Assembly: GCF_003704095.1 (NCBI RefSeq)
Contig: NW_020843698.1
Span: 114,018-144,864, forward strand
DNA from: Pocillopora damicornis
Lineage: Eukaryota
DNA: 30,847 nucleotides
Reading direction: 5' to 3'
How positions within the stretch are numbered: position 1 is the stretch's first letter; each line of letters starts with the position of its first letter. This document shows, piece after piece, positions 1,398-26,995 of the stretch. The translations under genes were made by a program, and so were the position numbers. The notes under the pieces were generated by a model, which saw only the letters and a list, made by a program, of their open reading frames with translations, did not search any database and was not told the origin of the DNA.

Positions 1398-1790
1398 GTA
1401 GGATAGTTAACATATCCACTCGATTTTACCACCATTAGATCTTGACTAATAATTAAAACTTCAGCTAATTTCCGAGGTACCACGAGCCTCATTAAGTAAT
1501 TAAGACTGGAAAGTCGTACACCCAGGAAATTTGAACCAACAGGCTTCAATAGAAGTGACGCGAGGTCTTTCTTATACGACTCGTTTTGTAGTTTTTACTT
1601 CTCATAAAGGATATCTCATCGTCAACAGATCATGATCAGTGACGCTTTAAAGTGAATTCTGCAGAAACTGCTATCCAATTTATAGCTATATAAATTATGC
1701 AATATAACAGTACCACGTGTAAGTCCCGTCAGAACAGTGTCGAGTAATTGATTAACAGATCTACAATTTTTTCAATTTTTTTTTCGGTAG

Positions 1791-1926
1791 GAAAATATTT
1801 AGTTGGGGAAATATTAAAGAGAGATGATCTTGAGCTCAGTTTTGTTTGGAACAGAACTTCTGAAGCTCTCCGGAACAAAATAGATGATCGTTACATTCTG
1901 GAAGATTTATCGTCCTTTGCAGAAAA
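1791..1926 (+). CDS. ASPDH: ASPDH exon 2 (KYLVGEILKRDDLELSFVWNRTSEALRNKIDDRYILEDLSSFAE).
   Basis: Acceptor ttttcggtag at 1781-1790. Aligns to human ASPDH LVSRLL...LELVFVWNRDPG. Donor GTATTC at 1927. Confidence 0.75.
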
Positions 1927-2311
1927 GTATTCTTGCTAAAATTAAGTTTATATTGTTTGAAAAGAGATAATACTTAACTTATAAAAGTGAAAATACCTTT
2001 AAAGGATACCAGAATCTTGTTTTAATCCATTTACACCTAGAAGTTATTAACGTATAACTTCTCTCTCAAATATTTATACATTATACAGTAAACAGGTAAT
2101 GAGAATACTCAAACGTATCAGGTAGAAGTTGTTATCTTGATCTAACACAAAGGGGCATAGCTTGAGGCTGAAGATTTTTCATTTCAGATATTTTTGATGG
2201 TCTAGCAGATTTTTCTAATCAAATACTTCTAATATTTCTATATAACATGCATCAGATCCTGGTACATATTTTGATTTAAAATAACTTTTTTTTTTTATGG
2301 TGGTTGTACAG

Positions 2312-2396
2312 GACTCCAGATTTGATTGTTGAGGTTGCACATCCTTCAATAACAGTAGAGTTTGGTGAATCATTCCTTGATGTTGCTGATTACATG
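2312..2396 (+). CDS. ASPDH: ASPDH exon 3 (K-TPDLIVEVAHPSITVEFGESFLDVADYM).
   Basis: Acceptor tgtacag at 2305-2311. Matches human [21 protein letters not shown]. Donor GTATGT at 2397. Confidence 0.8.
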
Positions 2397-2881
2397 GTAT
2401 GTAACTGATCTTTTTACATTGTTAAATTTTTATCATCTGTCACCTCGAAATATATATAGTTTTTTGTCTCTTGCTAAATGCAGCTATATTTTGATGCCCT
2501 ACCCTGCACCAGGAGCAGTTTTTAATTCTCTCTAATTGTTTTCTCAGCAAAAATGAAAGCCCAGCTATTTAAATGGTTTCGCCCCTTTAAAATAACTAAC
2601 ATTTAATTTCTTCTTACAATATCATCCCTGAATAACTTGTTAAGTATACAAAAAATAAAGGAATCGATCACCAACGAGAGAAGCTCCTGATTGTTGACCA
2701 AATTCTCCATGTCAGAACCTTAGGAAACATACTGAGAACAGTATGGAGACTATGCATACTGATGTTAGGTTGTAAAGAGTTAAGCAGAGAGAAATTTAGG
2801 GAAGTTAAACAGTCAACATTAGATATGTATTCTGTATAGAACAAAATTAGTATTAATATTTTCTCCTTAATTTTTTGGTAG

Positions 2882-3031
2882 GTGGGTTCTCCAACTGCTC
2901 TGGCAAACTCAGATGTTGAAAACCGTCTGAGGTGGAAGGCTTCTAGTGGTAGCCATGGAATTTATATACCCAGTGGCGCTCTTTGGGGTGGTGCTGATAT
3001 CAAGAAAATGGCAGATATAGGGACTCTAAAG
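2882..3031 (+). CDS. ASPDH: ASPDH exon 4 (VGSPTALANSDVENRLRWKASSGSHGIYIPSGALWGGADIKKMADIGTLK).
   Basis: Acceptor ttttggtag. Matches human VGSPSALSDQTTERQL...ARGALWGAEDIRRL. Donor GTGTGT at 3032. Confidence 0.8.
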
Positions 3032-3585
3032 GTGTGTATCTACAAGATGTATTATTATTTATGATCCATAAATTATTTGTGCTAGCCTACAAAATAAATT
3101 GAAGATGGGTGATCTGAAGATACCACCAAAGTAACATTGCTCAATTTTCAAACCTCATGTCTACTACCATAAATCTTTGTTTAAAATTTAATTCAAGACA
3201 AGATAACATTTTATGGTTGTTACAAAGGAAGGGAAATTTTTTTTTGTTTATAAAGTCATACCAGAGAAAACTCAAAAGAAAAAATATCCACAGCAAATAG
3301 TAAGCTGTTCTTGAACATTTTTTGTGCATGTTGCAAAATATTTGAAGGATAAGAAACACAGTAGCCTCTATTTTGCACCAAAATATATAAAAAATAGCTT
3401 GTATTTGGTGCAGAAATATATATGGAAATTTGTTTGTGGACATTATCTGTTCCAAGGTGAGGACAGTTTTGCGAGAGCAAAGCTTGAGGAAAACTGTGAA
3501 CTTTGGAGTTATAAATACAGTTATTCATTTGTTATGATTACATTTACTAAGAATATATACTAGTAAATTTTAATTGCAATTTTAG

Positions 3586-3691
3586 GGACTGAAAGTAACA
3601 ATGAAAAAGCACCCATCTTGTTTTAAATTGAATGAACCTCTTAAGTCAAGGAATGAGCAAGTGAACACAGAACCTGTTGTACTGTATGATG
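3586..3691 (+). CDS. ASPDH: ASPDH exon 5 (GLKVTMKKHPSCFKLNEPLKSRNEQVNTEPVVLYD-).
   Basis: Acceptor aattttag at 3578-3585. Matches human RVTMATHPDGFRLEGPL...CTVLYEG. Donor GTAGGT at 3692; phase 1. Confidence 0.75.
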
Positions 3692-4247
3692 GTAGGTTTT
3701 AAAAGATTTTTTGTTTCATAAATTACCCAAAGAATAACCTCTGTCTAATTGTTATTGAAAATAATATAGCTCTCATTTTCTTTCAAATCAAAGCCATGAT
3801 TTTTTTCACCCTGATTGTATTCCAAGACCTTCCATGAAGATTTCCTAAGGTGTATTGAGAAGTTAATAAATTCTTGATTTCATGAGGATGCTTTCCCTTA
3901 TTAAAAGAATACTCCTGAAAGGCTTAAAAAAGCCAAATTTTTTGTAGGTGGGCATGAAAAATTGGCAGCATGTGCGGTCGTCATTATTAGCATTCTGGCA
4001 CAAGTGTTTTTACCCGCAAGGAAGTATATGGCCTTTAGAAATGTGAGCCAGTAAGAGTTCTTCAAGGGGTTGAGCACTGACAATTAGTGTCAGACCCAAT
4101 GGAAGCTTCTCCTTACTTGTCTCAGATCTTCCTGTGGGCAGAGAAACACACATCCTGCAGCACTATTAATGAGGGCCTGCTTGTAGTCTAGAGAAATTGG
4201 TTGCCAGGGGTGAACTTGTCTGAGCCAGGGGGATGGTAACAATATGA

Positions 4248-4451
<204 letters not shown>

Positions 4452-5260
4452 TAAGACTGACAGATTAAATTCGTTTTGCAAATTTTGTTTGCAAATTTGA
4501 TTGAATACACTTTGCCTCTGTCCTAAATATTTCAGGCCTGAAAAGAGTTTCAGATTTTCCATCCAAAGGCAGCTCCACTTTGAAAATCATTGATTTAATA
4601 CGTGGCAAGTTCAGTCCATTTGAATACTCTTTTCAAAAAATGCTACATACTTTTGTTCTGAAATCTTTTGAGTATTCCAGTTATAATTCTATTAGTCTCA
4701 GAAATGCCTCTGTGGCAATAGAAGTTTAGTATCCTCAAGTCACAATCACTGGTTTTCTTTCTATAAGCACAGCCATTTTTTTATTCTCTCACACTTTTTC
4801 TAAGAAAAACTCTCTCAAAAGCAACATGCATGACTGCACTCATGCAAAGTGTCAATCAAAACTCAACTACATTCGGGTCCAGTCTCAGAAACTATAAGCT
4901 CTTTGCTATGGAAACCAGGATAAACTGGGTAAGCAATGGGTAATCAAGAAAGATAAGTTAACTCTGTACTCGAGTTAAGTGGCTCACCCAATCAGAGCTT
5001 GTTCCTCATCCTTTAGCAAAACGACACGAAGTATCATTACTCCCCCCCCTAGATGATCGCAAGGTTACCCCCCTTCCCCCCAAAAAAAGAAATTAACTAT
5101 TCTTCCCTGACATTTTCCTGGTACCCATTTTTCTCCTGCTTGGAGAGAGACTCTGTGAGAGTAAGGTGTTTTGCCCAACTAGATAATCAGGAGTGCAATG
5201 CTTATTAAGAAATCCTGTTTCCTGAAATCTCTTTTTTAATTATGATGTTCTATTACTTAG

Positions 5261-5409
5261 TCTAAATGCTCATATTGTGCAAGTTGATGTCTTTGGACCC
5301 GGTGATGAACAAAACCAGTTCACAGTCAAGACTGTGCGCCATAATCCAGCAGGATCTGGAGCCATCACTGGCAATGCAACATATGCATCATTTCTTTGTA
5401 GTATGCTGG
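5261..5409 (+). CDS. ASPDH: ASPDH exon 7 (F-LNAHIVQVDVFGPGDEQNQFTVKTVRHNPAGSGAITGNATYASFLCSML). An alternative acceptor lies at 5283/5284.
   Basis: Acceptor attacttag at 5252-5260, phase 2, pairing with the 4451 donor. Matches human DMHVVDVELSGPRGPTG...AVTGSATVTAFWQSLL. Donor GTAAGA at 5410. Confidence 0.6.
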
Positions 5410-5667
5410 GTAAGAACTTACACTTTTAAAGAGTTTGTGATATGGACAGCAGAACAGAAGGCATTAGGAGTGTAGAGGAATATTATAGTACATTCCAGAA
5501 CGTTCCATTTTTTACATTGTAACTCTAAAGTTGTGTGCTTAGTCAAGCATATCAGTTTGTAAATAGGATATTAATTAATTATTTAGACTGTTCTAGATTG
5601 TTACCTTGCTTTCCGAAGACTATCTCATGCTGATATTTTCAAACAAAATCTTTCTCTTTTTTTTCAG

Positions 5668-5705
5668 GAGCCCACAGTCAGGGACCTGGACTTCATCTTT
5701 GTTGA
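5668..5705 (+). CDS. ASPDH: ASPDH terminal exon (G-AHSQGPGLHLC, stop TGA at 5703-5705).
   Basis: Acceptor ttttttttcag at 5657-5667. The C-terminus GPGLHLC* matches human ...SRPGIHLC*. Confidence 0.75.
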
Positions 5706-5765
5706 ATTAGCTTTCAAAAAATTTGTATTTTTAAGAATTTTTCTTTTTTGAAAAAATGGATCCCA

Positions 5766-5771
5766 AATAAA
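5766..5771 (+). other. AATAAA polyadenylation signal, probably for ASPDH.
   Basis: Canonical hexamer ~60 nt downstream of the ASPDH stop codon. Confidence 0.45.
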
Positions 5772-6299
5772 AACACCTTTTGGTATGTACACATATCAGG
5801 GAGAGGTTAATCCTTCCACTCTCAAGATCTCATTAGTAATCCTCCTTAGTGTCTGCCATACAATTCCTATGATATTAGTTGAGAGAATAAGAGTCCTTTG
5901 GGCTGGTTAAAGGAGAGTTATGCTCCAGATACAGGGGTTTCAAAACAAGCTGGCAACCGTCAGAGTTCTACTAGCTCCTTGATAATAAGTTGCCAGTTTC
6001 ACTGATCAAAATAATTACCTTGTGGTCTTTAATCAACTTTTCAATTCCCCTACTTTTGCAGAATCTGATGCCTTCTTCAAAACATTTTGAAGAAACAGAT
6101 TTTATCTACGCAATATTTTTTGCTTGTGCTCTATTGGCTCAAATATACCATGTGATTGGATATTGTCAATTATCCATTTACAAAAAAAGAGGCTAGACTC
6201 TAAACTCTGTAGAACTTGTTAAATGAGCCATAACATTTGTGGTGTCAATTGAGTACAGGACACCTGAGAAATGCGTACCGGAAGTAACTTTGGGCTCAT

Positions 6300-6520
6300 T
6301 TCTATCCGGTGTGGGAAGAAGAATGGGCTCCCTGTGAACCCTTGGGCAACCCCTTAGCCCCAGTTGTTCGAAGATTGGATAACGCTATCCACTGGATAAA
6401 ACTCTATCCGGTAGATAACGCCATACGTTTTGCTATCACTTATACGCCGGATAGCGGTTTATCCGTTGGATAGCATTATCACTGGTTACTCGGGCTTTTC
6501 GTGCCTGTTATCTATTATCG
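6300..6520. repeat. Cluster of short palindromic GATA-type motifs (ggataacgctatcc, ggataaaactctatcc, cggatagcggtttatccg, ttggatagcattatc, ttatctattatcg).
   Basis: At least 8 GATAA/TTATC-core motifs lie within ~200 bp, mostly as inverted pairs able to form short hairpins. Read directly from the sequence. Confidence 0.5.
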
Positions 6521-8149
6521 AAAGAATGCCCTGGGAACGAGGTTACACGAAATCCAGAGCACAGGCGGAAACTTTTCAGGATGTCTTGAATAATTCACCG
6601 ATAATATGAGTAAATTGGACATCTATGCAGGTGAGAGGTCTCGTCGCTGTAAACAGTAGTAACTGATTAAGTAAGGAATAACTACTTTGGGTTCAAAAAT
6701 GGCGCGTGGTGATGACAAAGTTTCGAAAAATGTTGATAAACTCGGAGTCAACAGCTGTTGAACTGGCAGAGTTTCAAGATATGGAGAAAGATAATTCACC
6801 CCGAACCAAATAAGGGAATCAAAGTTTGTTTCGTCAATGATGTCACCAATCAGCTAATTATTTAAAATCGACCAATATTTCAGATCTGAGGTTGTAAGGC
6901 AAGAAGAAAAAGTCCAGAATCATTAGGGTTCCTCTCAAGAATTAGTTTGGCTTCGATAAGAATTTTTTCCTTCCTTTTGAAATTTCTTTATATTCAGCTA
7001 CTGCCATACCTTTTTTAAAATAAATGTCTCCCTAAGTTCATTAGTTTGTAGTTCTCACAGTCTGCTTAACCGAAAAAAAACAGTTTAATCTCTGAGAGTG
7101 TGTGTTGAGCTGGAAAATGTATCCTCTGCCAAAATGGCGACCAAAAATTGAAATTGAGTTTATGGAAACACAACTCCCATAGCAAGTAAAGGCATGGTTC
7201 ATATAGAAACTATGGAAAATGCTAAGTCAGTTCAATCCAGCTTATTAGTAAAATAACTGTTTCAAATTTGGTCATATTTGCATACTTTTGGGTTTGGCAT
7301 ACACCCTCAGCCATTCAAATGTGTGAAATTTTTTTCAAATTTTAAATAAAATTTTGTGTGGCTTGAATGATACCAGACTGGAATAGAGATGTTCTTTTAC
7401 TGAGGTCACTATGGAGTTTTTTGGAGGCTAATTTGACCCATTTAACAAGGTTATTAAGACAACCATCTAGCTCACTGCTGAGATTTGACAATTGATAAGG
7501 TAAGGTATGAAGCCAATGAAAAAGTATTCAATATATTGTATCACTATAGCTTTAACTATGACTTAAAAGGTTCAGTGACAGTTGCCCGGAATAAAAGAGG
7601 AAAGTGATTGTAAAAGCAGGGATAAGAAAAATTATAGAGGAACAATTTTAATCCTTTTTAACATGTTTTTTTATTTCATTTTCTTATCTGATCAACAGAT
7701 GCTGTAGCATGGTATGTAACATTTTGTCTATAATGTTAAATTCCTTTTAACAAAGTTCTCCAAGTAAACCTTCATGAGCAATCTATAACCTTACCTTTGT
7801 TAGGCTGGGAGAAGTAGGCATAAAGGTATTTCTAAAAAACAAGAGCCATTGTAGACTGTCCAGTGATGATAATTAACAACTACGTGAAGTCTACAACTGA
7901 CCCAAGTAGCCTAATTATTCTGTGGATGCTTTGTCTAGTTTCAACAGCATTAACTTTTTGCACCCTAAGATCAGTATACGTATTCCTCATACTGTTCTCT
8001 GTACATCTGAAATGGTATTGACAAGGAAGTTGTGTAGAACAGTCAAGAGTTTCTTGAGTAGGTGATCATCTTCTGTATTCTCACAACCTTACTGTTTGAT
8101 TCAGTGGTGGTCATGTATAGAGAGATTAGATGCCAGTCACTCCCAGGGG

Positions 8150-8350
8150 TTATATTAAGAGTCAAATACCTGCGTGGTAGACTAACTGGCTCACCGATTG
8201 GCATGGTGGACTGAGCTCATAGTGGTTTGGGATCTAAACCTGACAGGGCCATTCTGTTTCGTTCTTCAGCCAGTCACTGTTCTCTCACAGTGCTTCTCTC
8301 TACCCAGGAGCATCAATGGATACTTCTCACCTGTCATGCAAATATGACAG
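8150..8350. repeat. Family E repeat (…ttctctcacagtgcttctctctacccaggagcatcaatggatac…). A second copy is at 22140-22235.
   Basis: The shared block ttcacagtgc.tc.ctctctacccaggag.at.aatgg.tac occurs at both locations. Confidence 0.45.
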
Positions 8351-9887: not shown

Positions 9888-10145
9888 CTTAACCCTTGAG
9901 CCCATAATCATTGGTTAAATTTTAATCTTGTTTTAGAGTGATTTAATCGTGGGTTAGCACTAATCGGCTTTCGAACAACTGGAGCCTGATTGTTAATTCT
10001 CCTTTCTAGCTACTATGCATTTCCTTATAAATTAGTTATGGGAATTTGGTGTTAGATCAAGAAGACAACTTCTGCCTGATAAGTTCCAGTATTCTCATTA
10101 CCTGTTTGCTGGATAATGTATGGATATAATAGAGAGAAGTTAATC
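9888..10145 (+). repeat. ~250-bp MITE/SINE-like element (family B: ccttaacccttgag...gattgttaattctcc...ggtgttagatcaagaagacaacttctgcc...cctgtttgc...). Other copies: 14300-14440 (+), 2040-2160 (-), 16950-17110 (-), 20150-20340 (-), fragment 24540-24610 (+).
   Basis: The copies share long stretches in both orientations (for example ggtagaagttgttatcttgatctaacac versus its reverse complement ggtgttagatcaag...cttctgcc). This copy ends about 15 bp before the acceptor of the VPS4 exon at 10163. Confidence 0.6.
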
Positions 10146-10162
10146 ACTTTCATCTCTTGCAG

Positions 10163-10299
10163 GCGAAAAATTGCAATTCAAGACACAATTGTTTCCCATG
10201 GGCTTATTAAATTCTGTGATGTTGTTGGCCTTAATGATGCTAAGCAAGCACTGAAAGAAGCTGTTGTTACACCACTTCAATTTCCACACTTCTTTACAG
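10163..10299 (+). CDS. VPS4: VPS4-type AAA ATPase exon ([46 protein letters not shown]); start of the AAA cassette.
   Basis: Acceptor ctcttgcag. Aligns to Vps4 [33 protein letters not shown]. Donor GTAAGA at 10300. Confidence 0.8.
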
Positions 10300-10493
10300 G
10301 TAAGAACTTACTTATTTCAATGTCTCTGATATGTAAATTGTAGAATCAATCTAGGGCAAACTAGAAAGATAGGGAGTGTTTAGTGAATATTGCTATTTTT
10401 GGGTTAACCATTTGACACAGTGGCCATAAATATATGCATATTTATGTTAGGGTGTAGAGAGTTAAAATGTTTCGAAATTGTGACGTTTTGTAG

Positions 10494-10544
10494 GGGGTCG
10501 ACAGCCATGGAGGCGAATACTGCTGTATGGACCACCAGGAACAG
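10494..10544 (+). CDS. VPS4: VPS4-type AAA ATPase exon (G-GRQPWRRILLYGPPGT-), first half of Walker A.
   Basis: Acceptor ttttgtag. Matches Vps4 KRTPWRGILLFGPPGTG. Donor GTACTC at 10545. Confidence 0.8.
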
Positions 10545-10819
10545 GTACTCCAGTTTAATCTACGTCACTACTAGTCCATCGTTTGCCACCAATAGACCAA
10601 AAATAATATCTATTCTAAGGAGACAAAAGATAAAAAAAATGTGATAACATTCCACACCAATAACCTTGATTTACGGGCTGGCTCTCTAAGATTATGAGCA
10701 CTTTTCAACTGAGAGTCGAAAGTAATCTGCATTTACATTGGTGTTCTTTAGAGCAATTTCCATTGAGTGTCGAAAGTTATCCGATATGGATTGATTTCGC
10801 TTTACTCCGTTCTGTGATT

Positions 10820-11170
10820 GGTCCTGTCAACCAATCAGATGCAAAACTAAAACCAATTACATCTTGGTCACCCGCGTTTTCCCGCGCTTTGGGCAGTTTG
10901 CTTGCTTTTACTTTGAGTTTTCATTGGTTCTTTAAGGGTATTTTCCTTTCTTCTGATTGGCCACCGTTGCGACAACTTTTGGTTTTGGTTTTGCAACACT
11001 TATTGAAAAGCGCTCTACTACACGTCTTCGTTGGTCCGGGAAAATTTTACCACTCTCTCGACCAGTCAGATGCAAAACTTAAAAAACTGCAATTTGTTCT
11101 CACGTATTTTTTTGCGCTTCAGGCGGTGTGCTTGGTTTTTCTTTGAGATCTCCTTCGCACCATCTCGCGT
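10820..11170. repeat. Two tandem copies of an interspersed repeat (core ccaatcagat..aaaac..ttggtcacc(c/t)gcgttttcccgcgctt..ggcagtttgc) inside a VPS4 intron; a third copy is at 13800-13990.
   Basis: Direct sequence similarity among the three copies. The 150-aa track ORF 10694-11146 runs through these copies and is not a gene. Confidence 0.6.
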
Positions 11171-11376
11171 GACTAGCCAATGTCCTCATACTTAAGGCTT
11201 GGTTTAACTTGATTAAGTCGAAAAGCGCTAAGGCCTGAGTACAACGATTAGAAAAAGTTGCATTAGTTTTAAGATTTGTTTGAAGTCATTGTCACATTTT
11301 CACTAAAATTGGTAGTCATTGCAGTTTATTTATATCGTCATAACTGAGAGTTACTGCTACTGTTTTTGTTTAATAG

Positions 11377-11479
11377 GTAAAACAAGACTCGCGCAGGCTG
11401 TGGCTTCAGAGATCAACTCTGTATTTTACAGTGTGTCCAGTTCTGATCTAGTGTCCAGTTGGGTCGGAGAGAGTGAAAA
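11377..11479 (+). CDS. VPS4: VPS4-type AAA ATPase exon ([34 protein letters not shown]-), Walker A lysine.
   Basis: Acceptor tttaatag. Matches Vps4 [36 protein letters not shown]. Donor GTACGT at 11480. Confidence 0.8.
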
Positions 11480-11612
11480 GTACGTACAGCATATGTTGCT
11501 ATTTGGATGGGTGCAATGTTCTCCTAAACCCCATAACTCCCGTGAGTGACCAAGGCAGAATTTCTCCTTACAATGTTTTCTTGTGTTTTTTTGTTTGTTT
11601 GTTTTTTGTAAG

Positions 11613-11661
11613 GCTTATCAAGGAGCTATTCCAAAATGCAAGAGGCCAACAGGTTCAATCA
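11613..11661 (+). CDS. VPS4: VPS4-type AAA ATPase exon (K-LIKELFQNARGQQVQS).
   Basis: Acceptor ttttttgtaag. Matches Vps4 LVKNLFQLARENKPS. Strong donor GTAAGT at 11662; a weaker alternative is at 11653. Confidence 0.7.
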
Positions 11662-12255
11662 GTAAGTATAAAACTTGTTTTGTAGCGCGCGAGTCAGTAC
11701 AAGGAATCTGCTTCTACACTTGTGCGACCTTCTTCATACTATTCAAGCCGATGGAATCTCAGTCCTGAAGAAGAGAGTTTTCGGATTTTTCTGTAAGCTT
11801 CGTTTTTAACTGAGTCTTATCTACGAACGGATGTGAATCAAAGATTATATTTTTTAAGCGAAGTTTAAACTTGATAACAAAAAAACTAAGACCAATTTAG
11901 GCACAGTTAGGTGTACTTTAAGTTGCACAGGTGAAGTCCTTATTAAATTTTTCTTACTAACATCAATTACTGCTCTGAACCACTTGTGTGTTCCTTGGAC
12001 TTTTTAACGAACGTATTGAACCATATTTGCCAAACAGAAATATTACCGAGGTTTCCATTGGAAAAAACTGACCAAGGATGCCATTCACACGCCGAAAGCG
12101 CGGATTTTTCTCATGGTTTCTGCATCTTTAACTCCGCTATTATTGGCTAATTTGTTCCCTTTCAAATCAAAGTAGAACTGTTCGATGCGGCACTCATTTT
12201 TGTTCACATCAAAAGCCTTTTCAAGTATTTGCTATACTCTCTTTATATTTTCCAG

Positions 12256-12351
12256 GTAATTTTTATAGACGAAATTGATAGCATCTGTAGGAAAAGAAGC
12301 TCGCGGGAAGAAGAGTACACTCGAAGAATTAAGACTGAGTTATTAAAACAG
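12256..12351 (+). CDS. VPS4: VPS4-type AAA ATPase exon ([32 protein letters not shown]), Walker B DEID.
   Basis: Acceptor tattttccag. Matches Vps4 [32 protein letters not shown]. Donor GTCGGT at 12352. Confidence 0.85.
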
Positions 12352-12676
12352 GTCGGTAGATTTTGGAAACAGATCTTCGTGTATTTAGGTTACTTATCTA
12401 CTAATCAGCTGCTGACATGTCACTCGCCTTTCGAACCACTCTGTTGACTTTTCTTGTCAGTAAAGGCCTATAGTGTTTATATAATAAACAGAGTAACACA
12501 TTGTAGCCATGGAAATTCTCTTCCCAGTCGTGTTCAGCTCAATATCTGCGAGCTCGTTCGCTGTGCTCAGATATCGGGTTGAACACTCGAAGATAAATTT
12601 TATATTTACACGCGCCCCAAGTGTTCTTCTATATTTATTTCTAAATTCTGTTTTTTTTTTCTTACTTCTATTAAAG

Positions 12677-12807
12677 ATGGAAGAGGCTGATAACCCTGCG
12701 TCAATGAACCATTTCATCTTGCTCTGTGCTACCAACTGTCCCTGGGAACTAGACTCCGCCTTCCTGAGAAGATTCCAGAAAAGAATATACATTCCATTAC
12801 CAGATAA
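12677..12807 (+). CDS. VPS4: VPS4-type AAA ATPase exon ([43 protein letters not shown]-), sensor-1 and arginine-finger region.
   Basis: Acceptor ctattaaag. Matches Vps4 [36 protein letters not shown]. Donor GTAAGA at 12808. Confidence 0.85.
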
Positions 12808-12889
12808 GTAAGATTTTGGTTATTCTGAAACGAAGCACTCAAAAGCAGAGACTTGAGCAAGAAGCATTCTAATTTATAAGGAACCAAGT

Positions 12890-13085
12890 ACTGGAACTCG
12901 CGGAAAGCGATGAACCGCGAGGTCGAAAACGAAATACCCGCAACTCAATCGAAAACGGAGAACCCCGAGCTCGTAAAAGAATTACCCGAAATCGATCAAA
13001 AGCGAAGCCGAACCACGAGGTATGAAGTACCCCGAAGTCGGTCGAAAACGAAGAACCACGAGCTCGAAAGCGAAAATTTCTGAAG
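12890..13085. repeat. Minisatellite, about 4 copies of a ~46-bp unit (GAACCNCGAG.TCG.AAA.GAA.TACCCG.AA.TC..TCGAAAAC).
   Basis: Tandem periodicity is visible directly. The minus-strand track ORF 12869-13102 (repeating RARGSSFS/RARGSPFS/RPRGSSLS) is an artefact of translating this repeat. Confidence 0.6.
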
Positions 13086-13168
13086 ACATCTTTTAACTCC
13101 AAAAAAAAAACGATGGTATCCCGAACTGAACAGAAAGAGAACTAACTACTGCTTTTGTGTTTTTTTTT

Positions 13169-13190
13169 TGTGTGTGTGTGTGTATGTCTG
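13169..13190. repeat. Short (TG)n microsatellite preceded by poly-T.
   Basis: The run tgtgtgtgtgtgtgtatgtctg is visible directly. Confidence 0.7.
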
Positions 13191-13513
13191 GGTCGGAAAT
13201 GCATCGATTTGGCTGTACGAAACACCTCTAAATTGATGAAAATTGCCATGTTTGATACAGACTGTCAAAATTCGCAAATAATAAGGTGCAACGTTTTGTC
13301 GAATTTACAGAACTCATAATTTCACTATTTTATTAATTGTGACTCTTAACTCCTGCCCGTGGACGAGGTTACTTGCGATAGTCACTGATGTATGATAAAA
13401 AGAATGATCTGAGAAATGTATTTGTTTCTATTTGTCTACGAGTATTTTACATTTCATAATTTTTAATGAAGTAAGTTTCAATTTCTAAGGGCCAGCGGTA
13501 TTTTATTTCATAG

Positions 13514-13704
13514 AGCTGCACGCATTGCGTTAATGAAAATACACTTGGGAGTCACTCCTTCATCGCTCACTGCGGAAGATTGGTACCTACTTGGTGACAG
13601 GACAGAGGGCTTCTCGGGCAGCGATTTGTCAAACTGCACCTCAGATGCCATGTTTGAACCGTTACGTGAACTTGAAAACACCTCTCGCTGGAAGATGAAC
13701 AAAG
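13514..13704 (+). CDS. VPS4: VPS4-type AAA ATPase exon (K-AARIALMKIHLGVTPSSLTAEDWYLLGDRTEGFSGSDLSNCTSDAMFEPLRELENTSRWKMNK-), small AAA subdomain.
   Basis: Acceptor ttatttcatag. Matches Vps4 [62 protein letters not shown]. Donor GTAAAA at 13705. Confidence 0.8.
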
Positions 13705-16881: not shown

Positions 16882-17756
16882 GTAACATAGCGGTTTTACA
16901 TAGTGCTGTTAATTCAACGTAAAACCAATTTTTGAAAGTGAATTATTCCTTTAACTCCCAGATGTGATTAACATGTAACTTCTCCCAATAATATTCATAA
17001 ATTATATAGCAAACAGGTGACAAGAATACTCAAACTTATCTGGTAGAAGTTGTTATCTCGATCTAACACCAAATTCTAATAAATAAGTTATTAGGAAATG
17101 ATTAGCAGCAAGAGGGGAGCATCAAAAATCAGACTTTGGAGTTGAAAGGTTAAGGGAGGAATGCAAAATCTGATGTTATTATAAGGCAAACAGTAGAATT
17201 TAAGATTAATATTGGTCAATGAGTGTATTTCTTGCATTCACTGTGGTGAGAATATTCAAGCTTGTCTGAAAGGTTGTTAATGTTTCATTTATTAGAAGAA
17301 TGCTCAATTAACCTTGCTTTTAGAAGGATATGTCAGCCATATGGTCTACATAAAAATGCTTATTTAAGACAATACTGTTATGTTCTGAATGTTATGTGTA
17401 AATTAAGACAAGTATGGACTTTGTTTGAAGGAAAAATAAACACACAACATTTTGATACTTTAAACAAGCATTTTAGAAAATATCAAAATACAGCTTTCTT
17501 TGCTTGGTCTTGGATGTAAGGTTGTAACAAGTTGATAACAGACCCGTACTCCAGAAAAAATAACCAATCAGTGGTTGTTCATAGCAAATATTCCAGAAGA
17601 CTGGAGGTTTGAAAAAAAAAACCTGAGAATTAAATTTTGGACAGCGGAAGAGGGAAGGGAAATAGGGAAAAGAAAATAGGGAAGGGAGGAGAGGAGTGAT
17701 CGAAACTAAGGACCCTGTGGTGGACGATGAATTATACCATTTGTCATGTATTTTAG

Positions 17757-17937: not shown

Positions 17938-18620
17938 GTAATACTCATGCTGATTCATATCTTATTGAGAGGAAATAGTATGATTTATACTGGTAAACTA
18001 AGTGTACATTGATATAAAACCCTTGCTGAGAGGGTCTTTACCCTTTAACCCTCAGTATTGATTAGCTTGTAACTTCTTCTTGTGATACCGATATATTGTC
18101 TTGCTAACAAGTTATGAGAAGAGACAAGCTTATCAGCTAGTGGATGTTATGTTCACTTGATATAATATACATTCCCCTGTCTAATTACAAGAAACTCTGT
18201 GACAGTAAGAAGGAGGAAATACTAGTTGGATCTAAATGAGAACTAACAGGTTAATCTATCAAGCAAGGGTCTCAAGAGAGCCATTCTTTTTTAATTATAA
18301 TATGATAATTATTTAGTTTTAATTTTTAGGTTATACTTATATGTTTCTGAACATTTTGCTTCCTAACTTTTCCTGTAATAAGGGGGTATCCTTCAAGAGA
18401 ATTGTGAACTTGAAACTGAGAACATGGTGAATCATATATGATATCAGCTTCTAGTAGATAGCTTGCTGAATTAGTTTCATGCTTTTCTACTCAACTGTAG
18501 TAGTACTCTTTGGGGAAATTCATTGCATTGAAGTAGATATAGCATATAGAAATAAGTAATTCTTAATTAATCAGTATAATCTTATCACATTTTAAAAACA
18601 ATTATAAATATTTTCTACAG

Positions 18621-19135: not shown

Positions 19136-19207
19136 GTTTTGAGGTAAATTTGCAACCTCATCTTACTTCTTCTTTTTCTCATTATTTGAAAATTAATCTT
19201 CAAACAG

Positions 19208-19330
19208 GATCGTGATGATAACTTGCGTGTTGCTGGGGAAGAGTGGCTTGTTAAAAAGATTGGTGCTTATCTTCCTGGTGCTTATGAGGAAGTGGTTGAT
19301 GTTGTAAATGCCTATGTATTGACTGAGAAG
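19208..19330 (+). CDS. MVP: MVP exon 5 ([41 protein letters not shown]).
   Basis: Acceptor cttcaaacag. Matches human [41 protein letters not shown]. Donor GTGGGT at 19331. Confidence 0.9.
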
Positions 19331-19456
19331 GTGGGTGCAAGAACGTATTAAAAATGTATCATATTTGATTGACAAAGAAAGATAGATATATAGTGCAGAG
19401 GACAGCTACTTCATGGAATTTGATTGGGTAGGAACTAAATGCTACTGAAGAAATGA

Positions 19457-19605
19457 AAAATGGTTTCCGTGTTTACATAGCCTGATGTAAACATGCAGGA
19501 GGTTGGGAGAACACGAGATAAGCGTATCTTATCTCGTATCTTATCGAGTGTTCTCCCAACCTCCCAAGTGTTTACATCAGGCTATGTAAACACGGAAACC
19601 ATTTT
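19457..19605. repeat. Near-perfect inverted repeat (foldback) with ~57-bp arms (aatggtttccgtgtttacatagcctgatgtaaacatgcaggaggttgggagaacac / gtgttctcccaacctcccaagtgtttacatcaggctatgtaaacacggaaaccatt) around a ~35-bp spacer that is itself palindromic (gagataagcgtatcttatctcg).
   Basis: I reverse-complemented the left arm by hand. It matches the right arm apart from one 6-nt patch. Located in MVP intron 5. Confidence 0.7.
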
Positions 19606-20517
19606 ACTTTTCTTTTATAAAATAACTAATGAAAGAGGAACAAAAACCGTATTTACATATGCTCATGTAAAATGGTTTTATGGCCAATCAGAGCGTGCAT
19701 ACTATTTGAATTATTTTATAAAATATTTTTTTAAAATTCTTTGTTTGACTTTAAGCGAGTTTTTAATTTTTTTCTGAGTGTTTTTTGAAGTTGTTTCTTA
19801 GTGAAGAGTTTAAAAAGACTAAGAAGTGCTAGTGTAGGCTCTCTGTGCTGTGCATGGAGAAAGGAAATGTTTGTGACAGTTCTTCAAAATCTTTGGTCAT
19901 CTGACTGCATTCTTTGAAGATTAGGAATAAGGGAGTGAGAAGATGAAATTTTAAGGAGTTAAACCATAGCCATAGGTGTTTGTAGAATCAGTGGAGTTTA
20001 AACTTTCTGATTTGAAGACCAGTCAAAGGAAAGCAAAGTAGCTCTCCCTGGCTCATTTGAATGCTGATGAACAATGGTAAACTACAGTTATGGTATATAG
20101 TTAAAGTAACAAATTTTCTCCAACCTTTGCAGCTGTACTTTGGTTAAGAACTAAACAACCCTTAAACTCCCTGAAGTGACCAACAAGTAACTTCTCCCTT
20201 TAATATCTGTACATTATTCAGAAAACAGGTAACAAGAATACTCAAACTTATCGGGTAGAAGTTGTTGTCTTGATCTAATGCCAAATTATTGAACTTATTT
20301 ACAAGGAAATGAGTGTGCAGCTAGAGGGGAGAATGAACAATCACACATCTTGGGAGTTAATTGGGGTTATGTGCTGCAAAATATGTTCAAACACCATATG
20401 TAAATCTATGGCATTAGCCAGTACTTTAGAGGATCCCTGAAAAATGCCCCCATGAATTGTCAATATTCCATTATCCTAGTGCCTCTTTTGAGCCTCTTTT
20501 ATTTTTTCATATTATAG

Positions 20518-20643
20518 AAAGCTTTACATCTGCAATCCACACGCACATTCAAAGATGATACAGGTGTTTTACGAAAGAATGGGGAGGAGTGGTTAATTAC
20601 CATGACAGACACAGAGGCACATATTCCAAATGTCTATGAAGAG
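20518..20643 (+). CDS. MVP: MVP exon 6 ([42 protein letters not shown]).
   Basis: Acceptor catattatag. Matches human [42 protein letters not shown]. Donor GTAATG at 20644. Confidence 0.9.
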
Positions 20644-20800
20644 GTAATGTTATTCAATTGATCATCCAGACTATGAAGGCAGCCATAGATGATGAGGAGA
20701 ATTATGCCAACCCTGTAGTTAATTGATGCATTAACTGGTAACAGTTTGAGTAAAACAATTAAAATTTAATACATCAAATCTTACCTGTTCCATCTTGTAG

Positions 20801-20911
20801 GTTGTAGGAGTTGTTGATATCACAACACTGAACAACAGGCAGTACTGTGTCATTCTAGATCCTGTTGATAAAGATGGGAGGCCCCAGCTGGGGCAAAAGA
20901 GGCTAGTGAAG
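20801..20911 (+). CDS. MVP: MVP exon 7 ([37 protein letters not shown]).
   Basis: Acceptor catcttgtag. Matches human [37 protein letters not shown]. Donor GTACTG at 20912. Confidence 0.9.
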
Positions 20912-21659
20912 GTACTGGTACCTACTTGTCAATCTACAAAACAACCCTTTTTAAGGAGTATGATATGAATTGGATAATTTTATTTGTTTTATCAACTGAG
21001 TTGATAACTTAAACTGACCATTATAAAGAGTTTAAAAGCTGATGTTTCAAGCATTATAGCCCTTCGCTTTTCACTCTTTATGGTGGCCAATTTACATTAT
21101 CAACTCAGTGGATAATACTAAATTACCCTGATACACTTTCTCACTGACACAGCACCACAGTTTCTTGAGAAACCTACCCCCTTTATGATATGAATTGCAC
21201 CTTTGAACACAAGGTGACTACAAAGAGCAAAATAAAATACACAGAAAAACTTATTTTACAAGTTCACAAGTTATAAGGTCACTTAAGACATACAGGACAA
21301 GTGCAAACTCATTCTTCAATCTCTTCAGTATATTCCTTCAAGGATAGATATGTCCTTAATGATGCTAAAGAAAGCTGATGACGCGAAGACAATTTCACTC
21401 CAATGTGGATTGAATGTAAAAGGAAAATCAAAACTTTTTCTGATGAACAAAATAATTCAAAATCTTGGTTCTGAACAAGCTTACCAAGTTAAAATGGGAA
21501 TGGCATGGAGCTGGTGATTAAATTAAATAAAGTGCAGGACACCTGCAAGGATCATCTTATCATGTTCATAATGTATATATCGCCCGCACATTAAAATATT
21601 ATTTATTTCATTATATTGAGATTACTAAAAGATAACTTGAATTTGTTCCTGTCTTTCAG

Positions 21660-21839: not shown

Positions 21840-22062
21840 TTAACAGTTAACCCTTTAACTCCCATGAGTGACCAAGACAGAATTTCTCCTTACAATATCA
21901 ATACAATGTCAACCAGACAAGCGATGAGAATACAGAAAAATATTAATTTGGGGATGATCAGTTGATCCAATACTAACTTCTCTGAACTAACATTTTAAGA
22001 ATTGTATGGTTGACATTTAGGAAAATTACAAATTTGGTCTGGGAGTTAAAGGGTTAAGAAAA
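21840..22062. repeat. MITE with terminal inverted repeats (gttaaccctttaactccc ... gggagttaaagggttaag), family A. Related copies or fragments at 2560-2800, 9155-9325, 11523-11585, 23700-23920, 26750-26940.
   Basis: Shared head motif (a)accc(t)ttaa(c)tcc...gagtgac.aa...atttctcc.tacaat.tca.ccc and tail ...gagaacagtatggaga... across copies. The TIR at this copy was read directly. Confidence 0.55.
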
Positions 22063-23127: not shown

Positions 23128-24006
23128 GTAAGGCCTTTTTAAGGGTGACTGGGGCCTCGCACATTTTATCTGTATTTTTATCAGTATCCATATACTCTAT
23201 ACTTTTCTCTATACATTTTCTTTGGTACTATAATTGTTTCAAATCTATGATCATAATAATTCCTAATTACTAAACTAATATTATAGTATATGTGCAATCA
23301 GCATGGCAGATTTGACAATTTTGAGTAATTTAAGTCAAATTCATCAAAAGGGAAATCAGCTTGGTGGATTTGATGATTTTGATGAATTTTTTGCTATTTT
23401 TTGTTACTGCATGCATTTCTGGACATACTTCAGAAAGGGTAGGGTAAATCTTGTTCTAAAATCTCTCTAGGTTATCAGTCTCTTTCCACCCACTGGGATG
23501 AAAGTTCCAAGATGGAACTAAATCAAACTTCATCAAGAAGGCCTGGACAAAGAGGTGAACAAACAGCAATGCTTTCAGCTCAGTCATTACTAAAAGCCCT
23601 TGATAGAAAGTTGATTTTATGATAGTTGGAAAAGTATTCATGTTTAAGTTATGCACTCTTTTAAAAATCTAACATTCCTGCCATTTTAGCGATGCTTGAA
23701 ATCAATACTAACCATTAACATTATTCAACATTAACCCTCTGAACCCTAAGAGTGACTAACATCTAATTTCTCCTTACAATATCACCCCTGAATCACACAT
23801 TAGGGTCACGAGAATAAAGAAAATGATAACCAGTCTTGAAAAGAGGCCCCTGATTGTTAAACAAATTCTCCTTGTCAGCACCTTTGTTAATGTATAGAGA
23901 ACAGTATGGAGAATAGGGTTTTAAAATTAAGTCATAATTTACTTCAATTTTTTTTGTCTTAAAATTTAACAACTATATAACAATTTTAATCATTTTTGAC
24001 TTGCAG

Positions 24007-26125: not shown

Positions 26126-26995
26126 GTATGGGTCATTAGCTTGAAGCTTTGAACGGAACTAAAGCCGTTAAATTCTAGCCTTAGGAAAAAATTTATCTTT
26201 CAAACAGCACTCTTAATCCCCTTGGTATGAACGAGCACTTTTCATTCAACTGATTTATTCCTGTTTTCCTGTCACCTATTTACACCAATACCATAACTTC
26301 ATTTTCTGCATGTAAACATACACAACCCTGTGGCTCTGACAAAAGGGCTAACACTGGCAATGTCAGCCTTAAAACTCTTTACAGTGGCCAATTTATGTTA
26401 TCAACTCAGTTGATAAAACTTTATTGCCCTGCTATACTCTCTTACCAGTTCAGCACCACAGTTTCTTTAGAAATTTACCCCCTTTATTCATTTGAGCAGA
26501 ACTGTTGTGTTGTGCAGACTGCAGAACTATTTAAGGGAAATATGCCTTAGTTTTAGCATATCATTTATCATTTTCAGTCCCTTTTAAATGAAATCTCTTC
26601 TTTACATTATTTTACATTATTGTTCCTTCAGTTCTTCCCTTTGTCATATTTTGCAGTGACTTTCTTTCACATTGAGGATAGATTTCTATAACTCACACAA
26701 AGAAAATAATCAAAATACTTAGAAGTGGGGTAATCTTAGTAATGGCAAATTTAGCATTTGGACCCCTAAGAGTGTTTAGCATCTTATTTCTCCTCACATT
26801 GTCATCCTTGAATCAAACAGTTAAGTCACGAGAAATAAGGAAATGATCACCAATGAAAGAAGCACTTATCAGTGCCTTAAGAAATGTACAGAGAACAGTA
26901 TGGAGAAGAAGCATATGGAGAAGGGTGTAAAGAGTTATAAACATGAACCTGTTGCGAGACAGCAATGATCTGATGGATTATTGTGTTTGTTTTAG

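Follow-up and report, generated by a model that had tools for sequence, protein, structure and literature searches.

The window, by which we mean the whole stretch of 30,847 nucleotides that was analysed, carries on its plus strand the gene of the major vault protein (MVP). All matches in the protein search have vault domains, and the closest ones come from two stony corals, Acropora digitifera (88%) and Desmophyllum pertusum (87%). The identity of the gene comes from this database search and not from the human MVP sequence with which the exons were placed by tblastn and which served for exon mapping only. The GC content of the window is ~36%. Upstream of MVP, fragments of open reading frames typed by eye only indicate plus-strand genes at ~1750-4000 and ~10100-13700; one fragment resembles an aspartate-dehydrogenase-domain protein (GKYLVGEILKRDDLELSFVWNRT...) and another a katanin/fidgetin-type AAA-ATPase (IFIDEIDSICRKR...). 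The part of the gene that concerns us is the following:

19205..19330, plus strand: MVP coding exon 5 (context)
19331 to ~20517, plus strand: fifth coding intron of MVP, beginning with GTGGGT
20518..20649, plus strand: MVP coding exon 6 (context)

A large foldback begins in this intron, 118 nt 3' of its 5' splice site. The original prediction had described a near-perfect foldback at 19457-19605 in MVP intron 5, and both the structure and the location hold: the exons match vault-domain proteins, the intron is the fifth coding one, and the arms are found by repeat search as well as by RNA folding. The repeat search gives arms of 75 nt (19448-19522 and 19540-19614) that are 89% complementary and lie 17 nt apart. 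Folded as RNA, 19440-19620 forms one long stem with a minimum free energy of -114.1 kcal/mol, against -35.4 ± 4.1 kcal/mol for dinucleotide shuffles of the same segment (z = -19.1; 0/200 as good); as single-stranded DNA the hairpin alone reaches -72 kcal/mol. Within 19457-19605 the stem is perfect save for one 3x3 internal loop (19495-19497 / 19565-19567). The small palindrome gagataag/cttatctc reported in the spacer is present too, inside a 12-nt tandem duplication (19523-19534 / 19535-19546). A partially related segment had been noticed at ~19660, and it exists as well: 19647-19671 matches 19467-19491 at 84% identity, and forms a 38-nt palindrome of its own.

Short interspersed repeats are plentiful in the window. 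Another dispersed repeat of ~130-180 bp, of the form AACCC..AACTCCC..GTGACCAA..TTCTCC, has at least five copies, mostly in MVP introns (2027-2154, 16948-17075, 18042-18169, 20160-20287 and 21852-21979, with further matches at 11527-11574 and 23733-23780). Some of its copies are inverted relative to each other (14330-14417/17060-17147 and 21848-22028/24526-24706), and the family is also matched in an orthologous scaffold, L054 (784-980). A second, weaker foldback lies at 20983-21121, in the intron after coding exon 7 (20801-20911), with 54-nt arms that are 80% complementary and a 31-nt spacer. It overlaps a 114-bp repeat (21073-21186) with a second copy 5.3 kb downstream (26374-26487), and is therefore probably another hairpin-forming repeat family.

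The repeat family and its insertion sites

There is no second copy of the arm inside the 30.8-kb window. A degenerate 25-mer, CCGTRTTTACATANNCTNATGTAAA, built from the positions common to the arm and the third segment, matched 51 contigs in metagenome collections, one of the sources being a Cyphastrea coral metagenome (Ga0126343); neither viral contigs nor prokaryote genomes (596 Gb), which served as specificity controls, had any match. A pseudo-ORF running across the window copy matched 461 protein clusters, all of them from ENA coral holobiont assemblies, including Tara Pacific samples, the source of loci L054-L076. In BLAST searches against the contigs the homology stops sharply at 19448 (21 alignments) and at 19720-19724 (12 alignments), and alignments of the termini show conserved ends, AAGAAATATAAAATGGTTTCCGTGTTTACAT... 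and ...CCAATCAGAGCACGCGTACTATCCAAATTATTTTATAA, in flanks that are unrelated between copies. Up to three further nucleotides (CTG, 19445-19447) are perhaps element sequence. The termini can also be given as AAGAAATRTAAAATGGTTTCCGTGTTTACAT... and ...CCAATCAGAGC-N20-TTATTTTATAA; on the plus strand they read AAGAAAT... and ...TTATTTTATA(A)n, and on the minus strand T(n)ATAAAATAA... and ...ATTTCTT. The foldback is one part of an element with the following anatomy:

19448..19723, minus strand: complete ~276-bp copy of a non-autonomous dispersed repeat, in a short form with an internal deletion
19448..19614, no strand assigned: terminal giant stem-loop, that is, the foldback; homologous to the 150-214-nt hairpins of at least 19 other copies
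19448..19522, plus strand: outer arm, adjoining the element terminus; retained where the inner arm is lost
19470..19493, plus strand: mini-palindrome TGTTTACAT-N6-ATGTAAACA in the outer arm, in nearly invariant alignment columns
19495..19497, plus strand: left side of the internal loop (partner 19565-19567); asymmetric, its position identical in all copies of the two subfamilies
19523..19546, plus strand: hairpin apex with the 12-nt tandem duplication (cgtatcttatct / cgtatcttatcg), from comparison with L055
19540..19614, plus strand: inner arm, deleted in several other copies with differing junctions
19613..19625, plus strand: subterminal short inverted repeat (TTTTATAAAATAA), abutting the hairpin; position conserved in other copies
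19641..19682, plus strand: second, smaller palindrome (AAAAACCGTATTTACAT..ATGTAAAATGGTTTT), the related segment, in the other end region of the element
19711..19723, plus strand: short inverted repeat at the terminus, TTATTTTATA, with an A-run (read as T on the minus strand) of differing length among copies

Only one end of the element has the giant hairpin. The subterminal short repeat (19613-19625, TTTTATAAAATAA) and the terminal one (19711-19723, TTATTTTATAAAA) are complementary over 13 nt at 100%, and such a pair occurs at matching positions in other copies, including those of the second subfamily. When the whole element is folded as single-stranded DNA, the short inverted repeats pair with each other and the giant hairpin is left terminal. 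The element contains three mini-palindromes of the TGTTTACAT-N6-ATGTAAACA type: that of the outer arm, one in the inner arm (19569-19592), and a related third towards the opposite end, where the 38-nt palindrome is built on the same TGTTTACAT...ATGTAAA motif that is found within each arm. The apex duplication stands in place of a ~40-nt apical stem of other copies. Between the second palindrome and the terminus (19684-19723) lies a CCAAT-box-like GGCCAATCAG, conserved as ACCAATCAGAG in other copies, and ~25-30 nt 3' of it, at the very terminus, a TATA-like TTTTATAAAA; the two face outward on the plus strand, and could be an outward-reading or circle-junction promoter, or a coincidence in AT-rich DNA.

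Copies range in length from 234 bp to 1.7 kb and have both ends in common. At independent loci there are short copies, 292-295 bp long, that show the deletion junction of the window copy, which indicates that the short form, hairpin plus tail, is itself an amplified subfamily. No coding capacity was found in any copy, whether among the ORFs of the loci or inside the longest copies. Several copies have no inner arm, with junctions that differ, so the full hairpin is perhaps not strictly required.

These copies bear directly on how the palindrome arose. It could in principle be a locus-specific inverted duplication made by replication template switching, with no mobile history; the arms are nearly identical, and the 12-nt apex duplication private to this copy is typical of replication slippage. 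But in several coral metagenomes this hairpin recurs at many loci that are unrelated to each other, with its boundaries and its asymmetric loop unchanged. The dispersed copies refute a template-switch palindrome, to which we give next to no credence. Similarly, the evidence for a multi-copy family makes it unnecessary to invoke a cruciform or a recombination hotspot at this single locus, as had been suggested, and the notion of a special structure, which the original prediction had itself set against many dispersed copies, fails now that such copies have been found.

We saw no target-site duplication in at least eight complete copies. A search with flank queries for empty sites returned a single paralogous one: the subfamily-B insertion L024 interrupts another coral repeat, of which L053 is an uninterrupted paralog. 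In L053 the flanks join inside a T-run with no duplication longer than 2 nt, although this paralog, the only empty site, is just ~80% identical and the junction is therefore known to ±2 nt at best. The target repeat itself spans L024 455-1017 and L053 1033-1285 (GAAAACGCAACAAT...GAGGAAAACTCGGGCGGGAAAAT...). The A-run at the non-hairpin end measures 0-6 nt among 33 independent copies, and the first non-A base beyond it on the plus strand is a T in only 20 of the 33. At the hairpin end, 22 of the 28 independent copies have A-N-T-T/G before the element (plus strand). On the minus strand this pattern would amount to a host T after the hairpin end in 22/28, only if the three variable nucleotides are counted as element. 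The flanks of one copy, L045 (~1211 and ~513), show an imperfect direct repeat of ~15 nt (CATTTGTTTTTCAGTC / CATTTTTTCAGAC), displaced by 2 nt relative to the end of the element. It is absent from the other copies, and we rejected it as a target-site duplication and treated it as chance in T-rich DNA; it could be that, or a rare event like the one-ended transposition reported for Helitron2, with its variable duplications.

Among the options of the original prediction, a transposon is therefore right in that the foldback belongs to a dispersed multi-copy repeat, and wrong in that the arms do not delimit a whole foldback element or MITE: the element goes on to 19723, takes in the related segment, and has the hairpin as a module at one of its ends. 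A classical MITE or foldback element of a cut-and-paste (DDE) transposon would have the long inverted repeat as its termini, bound as double-stranded DNA. The likeness is considerable, as the coral repeat, multi-copy and resident in introns, is short, lacks coding sequence and has AT-rich ends and a long inverted repeat; hairpin folding is frequent in MITE families, and foldback elements form long hairpins of this kind. We nevertheless find this origin unlikely, on four grounds. First, homology continues past the inner arm for ~110 bp (to 1.5 kb in long copies) up to a second and different terminus, so that the inverted repeat sits at one end only. Second, the outermost ends do not form an inverted repeat, the other terminus (19644-19723) being different in sequence. 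Third, a target-site duplication is missing both from the complete copies and from the paralogous empty site. Fourth, copies with one arm only are common.

Covariation of the stem and divergence at the MVP locus

To describe the stem across the family we aligned 19 oriented hairpins, from two subfamilies, on a consensus structure of 44 pairs. Over these pairs 92.7% of the cells are paired, against 40-52% with slid partners. Seventeen pairs have changed on both sides, giving 103 such cells versus 47 ± 6 in shuffles (0/500 reach this value), although these compensatory changes mostly separate the two subfamilies and thus represent few independent events. Both the outer stem (AAGAAATATAAAATGG vs AAGCAATAGAGCACTT) and the inner stem (GAGAACAC vs GAGAATTC) differ between the subfamilies and are still complementary. 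The TTTACAT motifs are nearly invariant, and the TGTTTACAT motifs and the position of the internal loop are fixed across the family. The loop consistently reads GC on the left arm and AA on the right in subfamily A, and GA and GA in subfamily B. Copying from arm to arm could have contributed to the complementarity; the conserved asymmetric loop argues against a wholesale homogenisation. The maintenance of pairing through compensatory changes between subfamilies indicates that the structure matters to the transposon, for which the hairpin is probably functional. Together with the fixed motifs and loop, the covariation fits a single-stranded DNA signal recognised by a protein.

At the MVP locus, the window copy can be compared with its ortholog. 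A Tara Pacific scaffold (L054) contains the orthologous intron, 94.0% identical over 1.17 kb and with identical flanks, and the element occupies the same site in it, down to the private apex duplication. Since the insertion is common to both corals, it is older than their split. Nine of the 167 hairpin positions have changed between the orthologs, and 34 of the 883 in the remainder of the intron (Fisher p = 0.39); for the whole element there are 17 substitutions in 276 bp against the same 34/883 (p = 0.13). None of the differences in the hairpin is compensatory, and two are C>U changes that give G:U pairs. In this comparison with L054 there is no sign of a host function, that is, no constraint above the neutral intron background. 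The element at the MVP locus is an old neutral passenger, an ordinary transposon relic.

This matters for the suggestion that the foldback is a hairpin-RNA precursor, or more broadly that the host uses it at this locus, either through Dicer, as the intronic precursor of a hairpin RNA or a miRNA-like RNA, or through regulation of MVP splicing by its structure. What speaks for such a use is the near-perfect duplex of ~75 bp that sense pre-mRNA would contain 118 nt from the 5' splice site, the equal stability of the ortholog RNA folds in spite of nine differences (-112.3 vs -112.1 kcal/mol), and sub-threshold matches to generic miRNA hairpin models. On the other hand, no Rfam 15 family reaches its gathering score in the window, the best sub-threshold matches being generic long-hairpin miRNA models at 43 bits where 71 are required and at 39 where 76 are; substitutions accumulate in the hairpin at least as fast as in the remainder of the intron and without compensation; and the stem far exceeds the length of animal pre-miRNAs. 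The MVP loci of A. digitifera (L001) and D. pertusum (L002) can be aligned with the window at the exons alone, and their introns hold no counterpart of the hairpin, an alignment so limited being uninformative on the presence or absence of the insertion. There are hundreds of similar hairpins elsewhere, and nothing singles out the copy in the MVP intron. A full-text search found the arm sequences in no paper. The precursor option thus finds no support in Rfam gathering scores or in the neutral divergence from L054, and we regard host use at this locus as very unlikely. For the MVP gene, the foldback is of little consequence, being a neutral old relic and not a dedicated regulatory RNA. Even so, the element would, by its predicted fold, still give a ~75-bp duplex in MVP pre-mRNA, and hundreds of such duplexes in coral pre-mRNAs are potential substrates of Dicer or ADAR. 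A word of caution follows for other loci: striking intronic hairpins of coral genomes are likely to be repeat-derived.

A probable relation to Helitron-like elements

The group that best accommodates the coral family is that of the Helitron-like elements 2 (HLE2), which comprises Helentron/Helitron2 and the non-autonomous HINE/DINE-1 elements (PMC3627910, PMC4067079, PMC11417382). These elements have short asymmetric inverted repeats, the subterminal one being followed by a stem-loop, and palindromes near both ends; they insert without duplication at a T-rich T-T target, have terminal T strings of variable length and leave many deletion derivatives (PMC3627910, PMC4067079, PMC11417382). Elements of the HLE2 type occur in cnidarians (PMC4067079, PMC3627910, PMC11417382), and Helentron proteins are on record from Acropora and Nematostella.

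A number of traits speak for placing the coral family there. First, HLE2 inverted repeats are asymmetric, ~11-16 nt long, one terminal and one subterminal, and the coral element has this arrangement in a partly palindromic repeat, with the caveat that its repeat is AT-rich and only 11-13 nt long. Second, a stem-loop lies between the subterminal repeat and the adjacent terminus, a topology that the coral element shares at an atypical scale. Third, it has no target-site duplication. Fourth, like HINEs, the family consists of non-coding deletion derivatives of many sizes with both termini in common. Fifth, it has the second palindrome near the other end, the T-rich target and the terminal T-run of variable length. 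The main difference is one of size: the hairpin measures 167 nt in the window and 150-214 nt elsewhere, with arms of ~75 bp, whereas published stem-loops are of 5-20 bp. As a consequence of the oversized stem-loop, the distance between the subterminal repeat and the end is ~170-190 nt, compared with 20-60 nt in HLE2. The central tandem repeats of some HINEs were also searched for in the coral element, and none was found. The T-T insertion rule can be demonstrated for the family in part only.

An autonomous partner encoding Rep/helicase, with or without an AP endonuclease, was sought among the ORFs of at least 130 aa in the 51 metagenome loci, among the ORFs inside the longest copies and in the Pfam labels of neighbouring genes. 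No ORF or Pfam match (Helitron_like_N, PIF1) was present in the 51 loci, nor was any partner found in the ~570 kb of coral DNA retrieved or within ±10 kb of the copies examined on long contigs, so it is the architecture that assigns the family to its superfamily. Weighing these traits, we take 19448-19723 for a non-autonomous copy of a DNA transposon, most likely of HLE2 type and a passenger at the locus, with the foldback as its terminal stem-loop; we give this a probability of roughly 0.62. Canonical Helitrons (HLE1) resemble the family in lacking target-site duplications, in having a subterminal hairpin at one end, presumed to be a termination signal on single-stranded DNA, and in their abundant non-autonomous derivatives. 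Unlike them, the coral element has neither the 5'-TC and 3'-CTRR ends nor the insertion between A and T, and it has short inverted repeats, of which Helitron1 has none.

If the family is of HLE2 type, its mobilisation can be pictured as follows, the superfamily, the transposase and the role of the hairpin on single-stranded DNA being what we infer from the architecture. A Rep/helicase (HUH) transposase acting in trans would move the element as single-stranded DNA by rolling-circle transposition. On the minus strand, the element runs from the variable T-run through the 11-13-nt terminal inverted repeat and the small palindrome to a body, which is deleted in the window copy, and then to the inverted partner of the repeat and the giant stem-loop ending in ...TTTCTT. 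The terminal hairpin would fold in the single-stranded form. It may then, with the conserved internal loop and the TGTTTACAT/ATGTAAACA motifs that are repeated in it, mark the end at which the strand is cut or replication terminates. One copy inserted into MVP intron 5 before the host coral split from the related species.

The size of the stem-loop also raises the question of whether the family belongs to an undescribed or different class of mobile elements, in which a long terminal hairpin is the origin of replication or resolution (rolling-hairpin elements, other HUH elements or tyrosine recombinase elements). The terminal palindromes of the AAV ITR, of the MVM left-end telomere and of IS200/IS605 have mismatched bubbles and repeated motifs, and are read on single-stranded DNA by HUH endonucleases. 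In its long, imperfect terminal palindrome, its bubble and its repeated motifs the coral element is like them, as an analogy of mechanism only; it differs in being a eukaryotic chromosomal repeat with a hairpin at one end and without viral or IS coding sequence. A hairpin of 170-190 nt whose asymmetric bubble is conserved, and whose internal mini-palindromes could give a branched form on refolding, is nearer to parvoviral terminal hairpins than to the 5-20-bp stem-loops of Helitrons, and the coral DNA examined yielded no RepHel partner. Yet the hairpin occurs at a single end, nothing viral or coding is associated with any copy, and a variable T-run, short inverted repeats that pair and a duplication-free T-rich target are specific traits described for Helentrons and HINEs. 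A different class seems improbable to us. By the same analogy one might imagine a lineage of elements mobilised as single strands, with the ~180-nt hairpin as a rolling-hairpin or resolution origin and with intronic copies that might feed a coral siRNA pathway, a scenario that we think quite unlikely.

The family is modestly useful to transposon biology, offering an abundant coral repeat with Helentron/Helitron2-like termini and a stem-loop ~10x the usual size. Its pattern of conservation is the one expected of a single-stranded DNA signal that a protein recognises, and for this reason the family could help to establish which features of element ends are read by Helitron-like transposases. One neighbour of a copy of the family is a coding element: on a 726-kb coral contig (L073), 2 kb from the copy, a DIRS-like retroelement (3930-8210) with Phage_integrase (tyrosine recombinase) and RVT_1 domains, which appears unrelated to the hairpin family.
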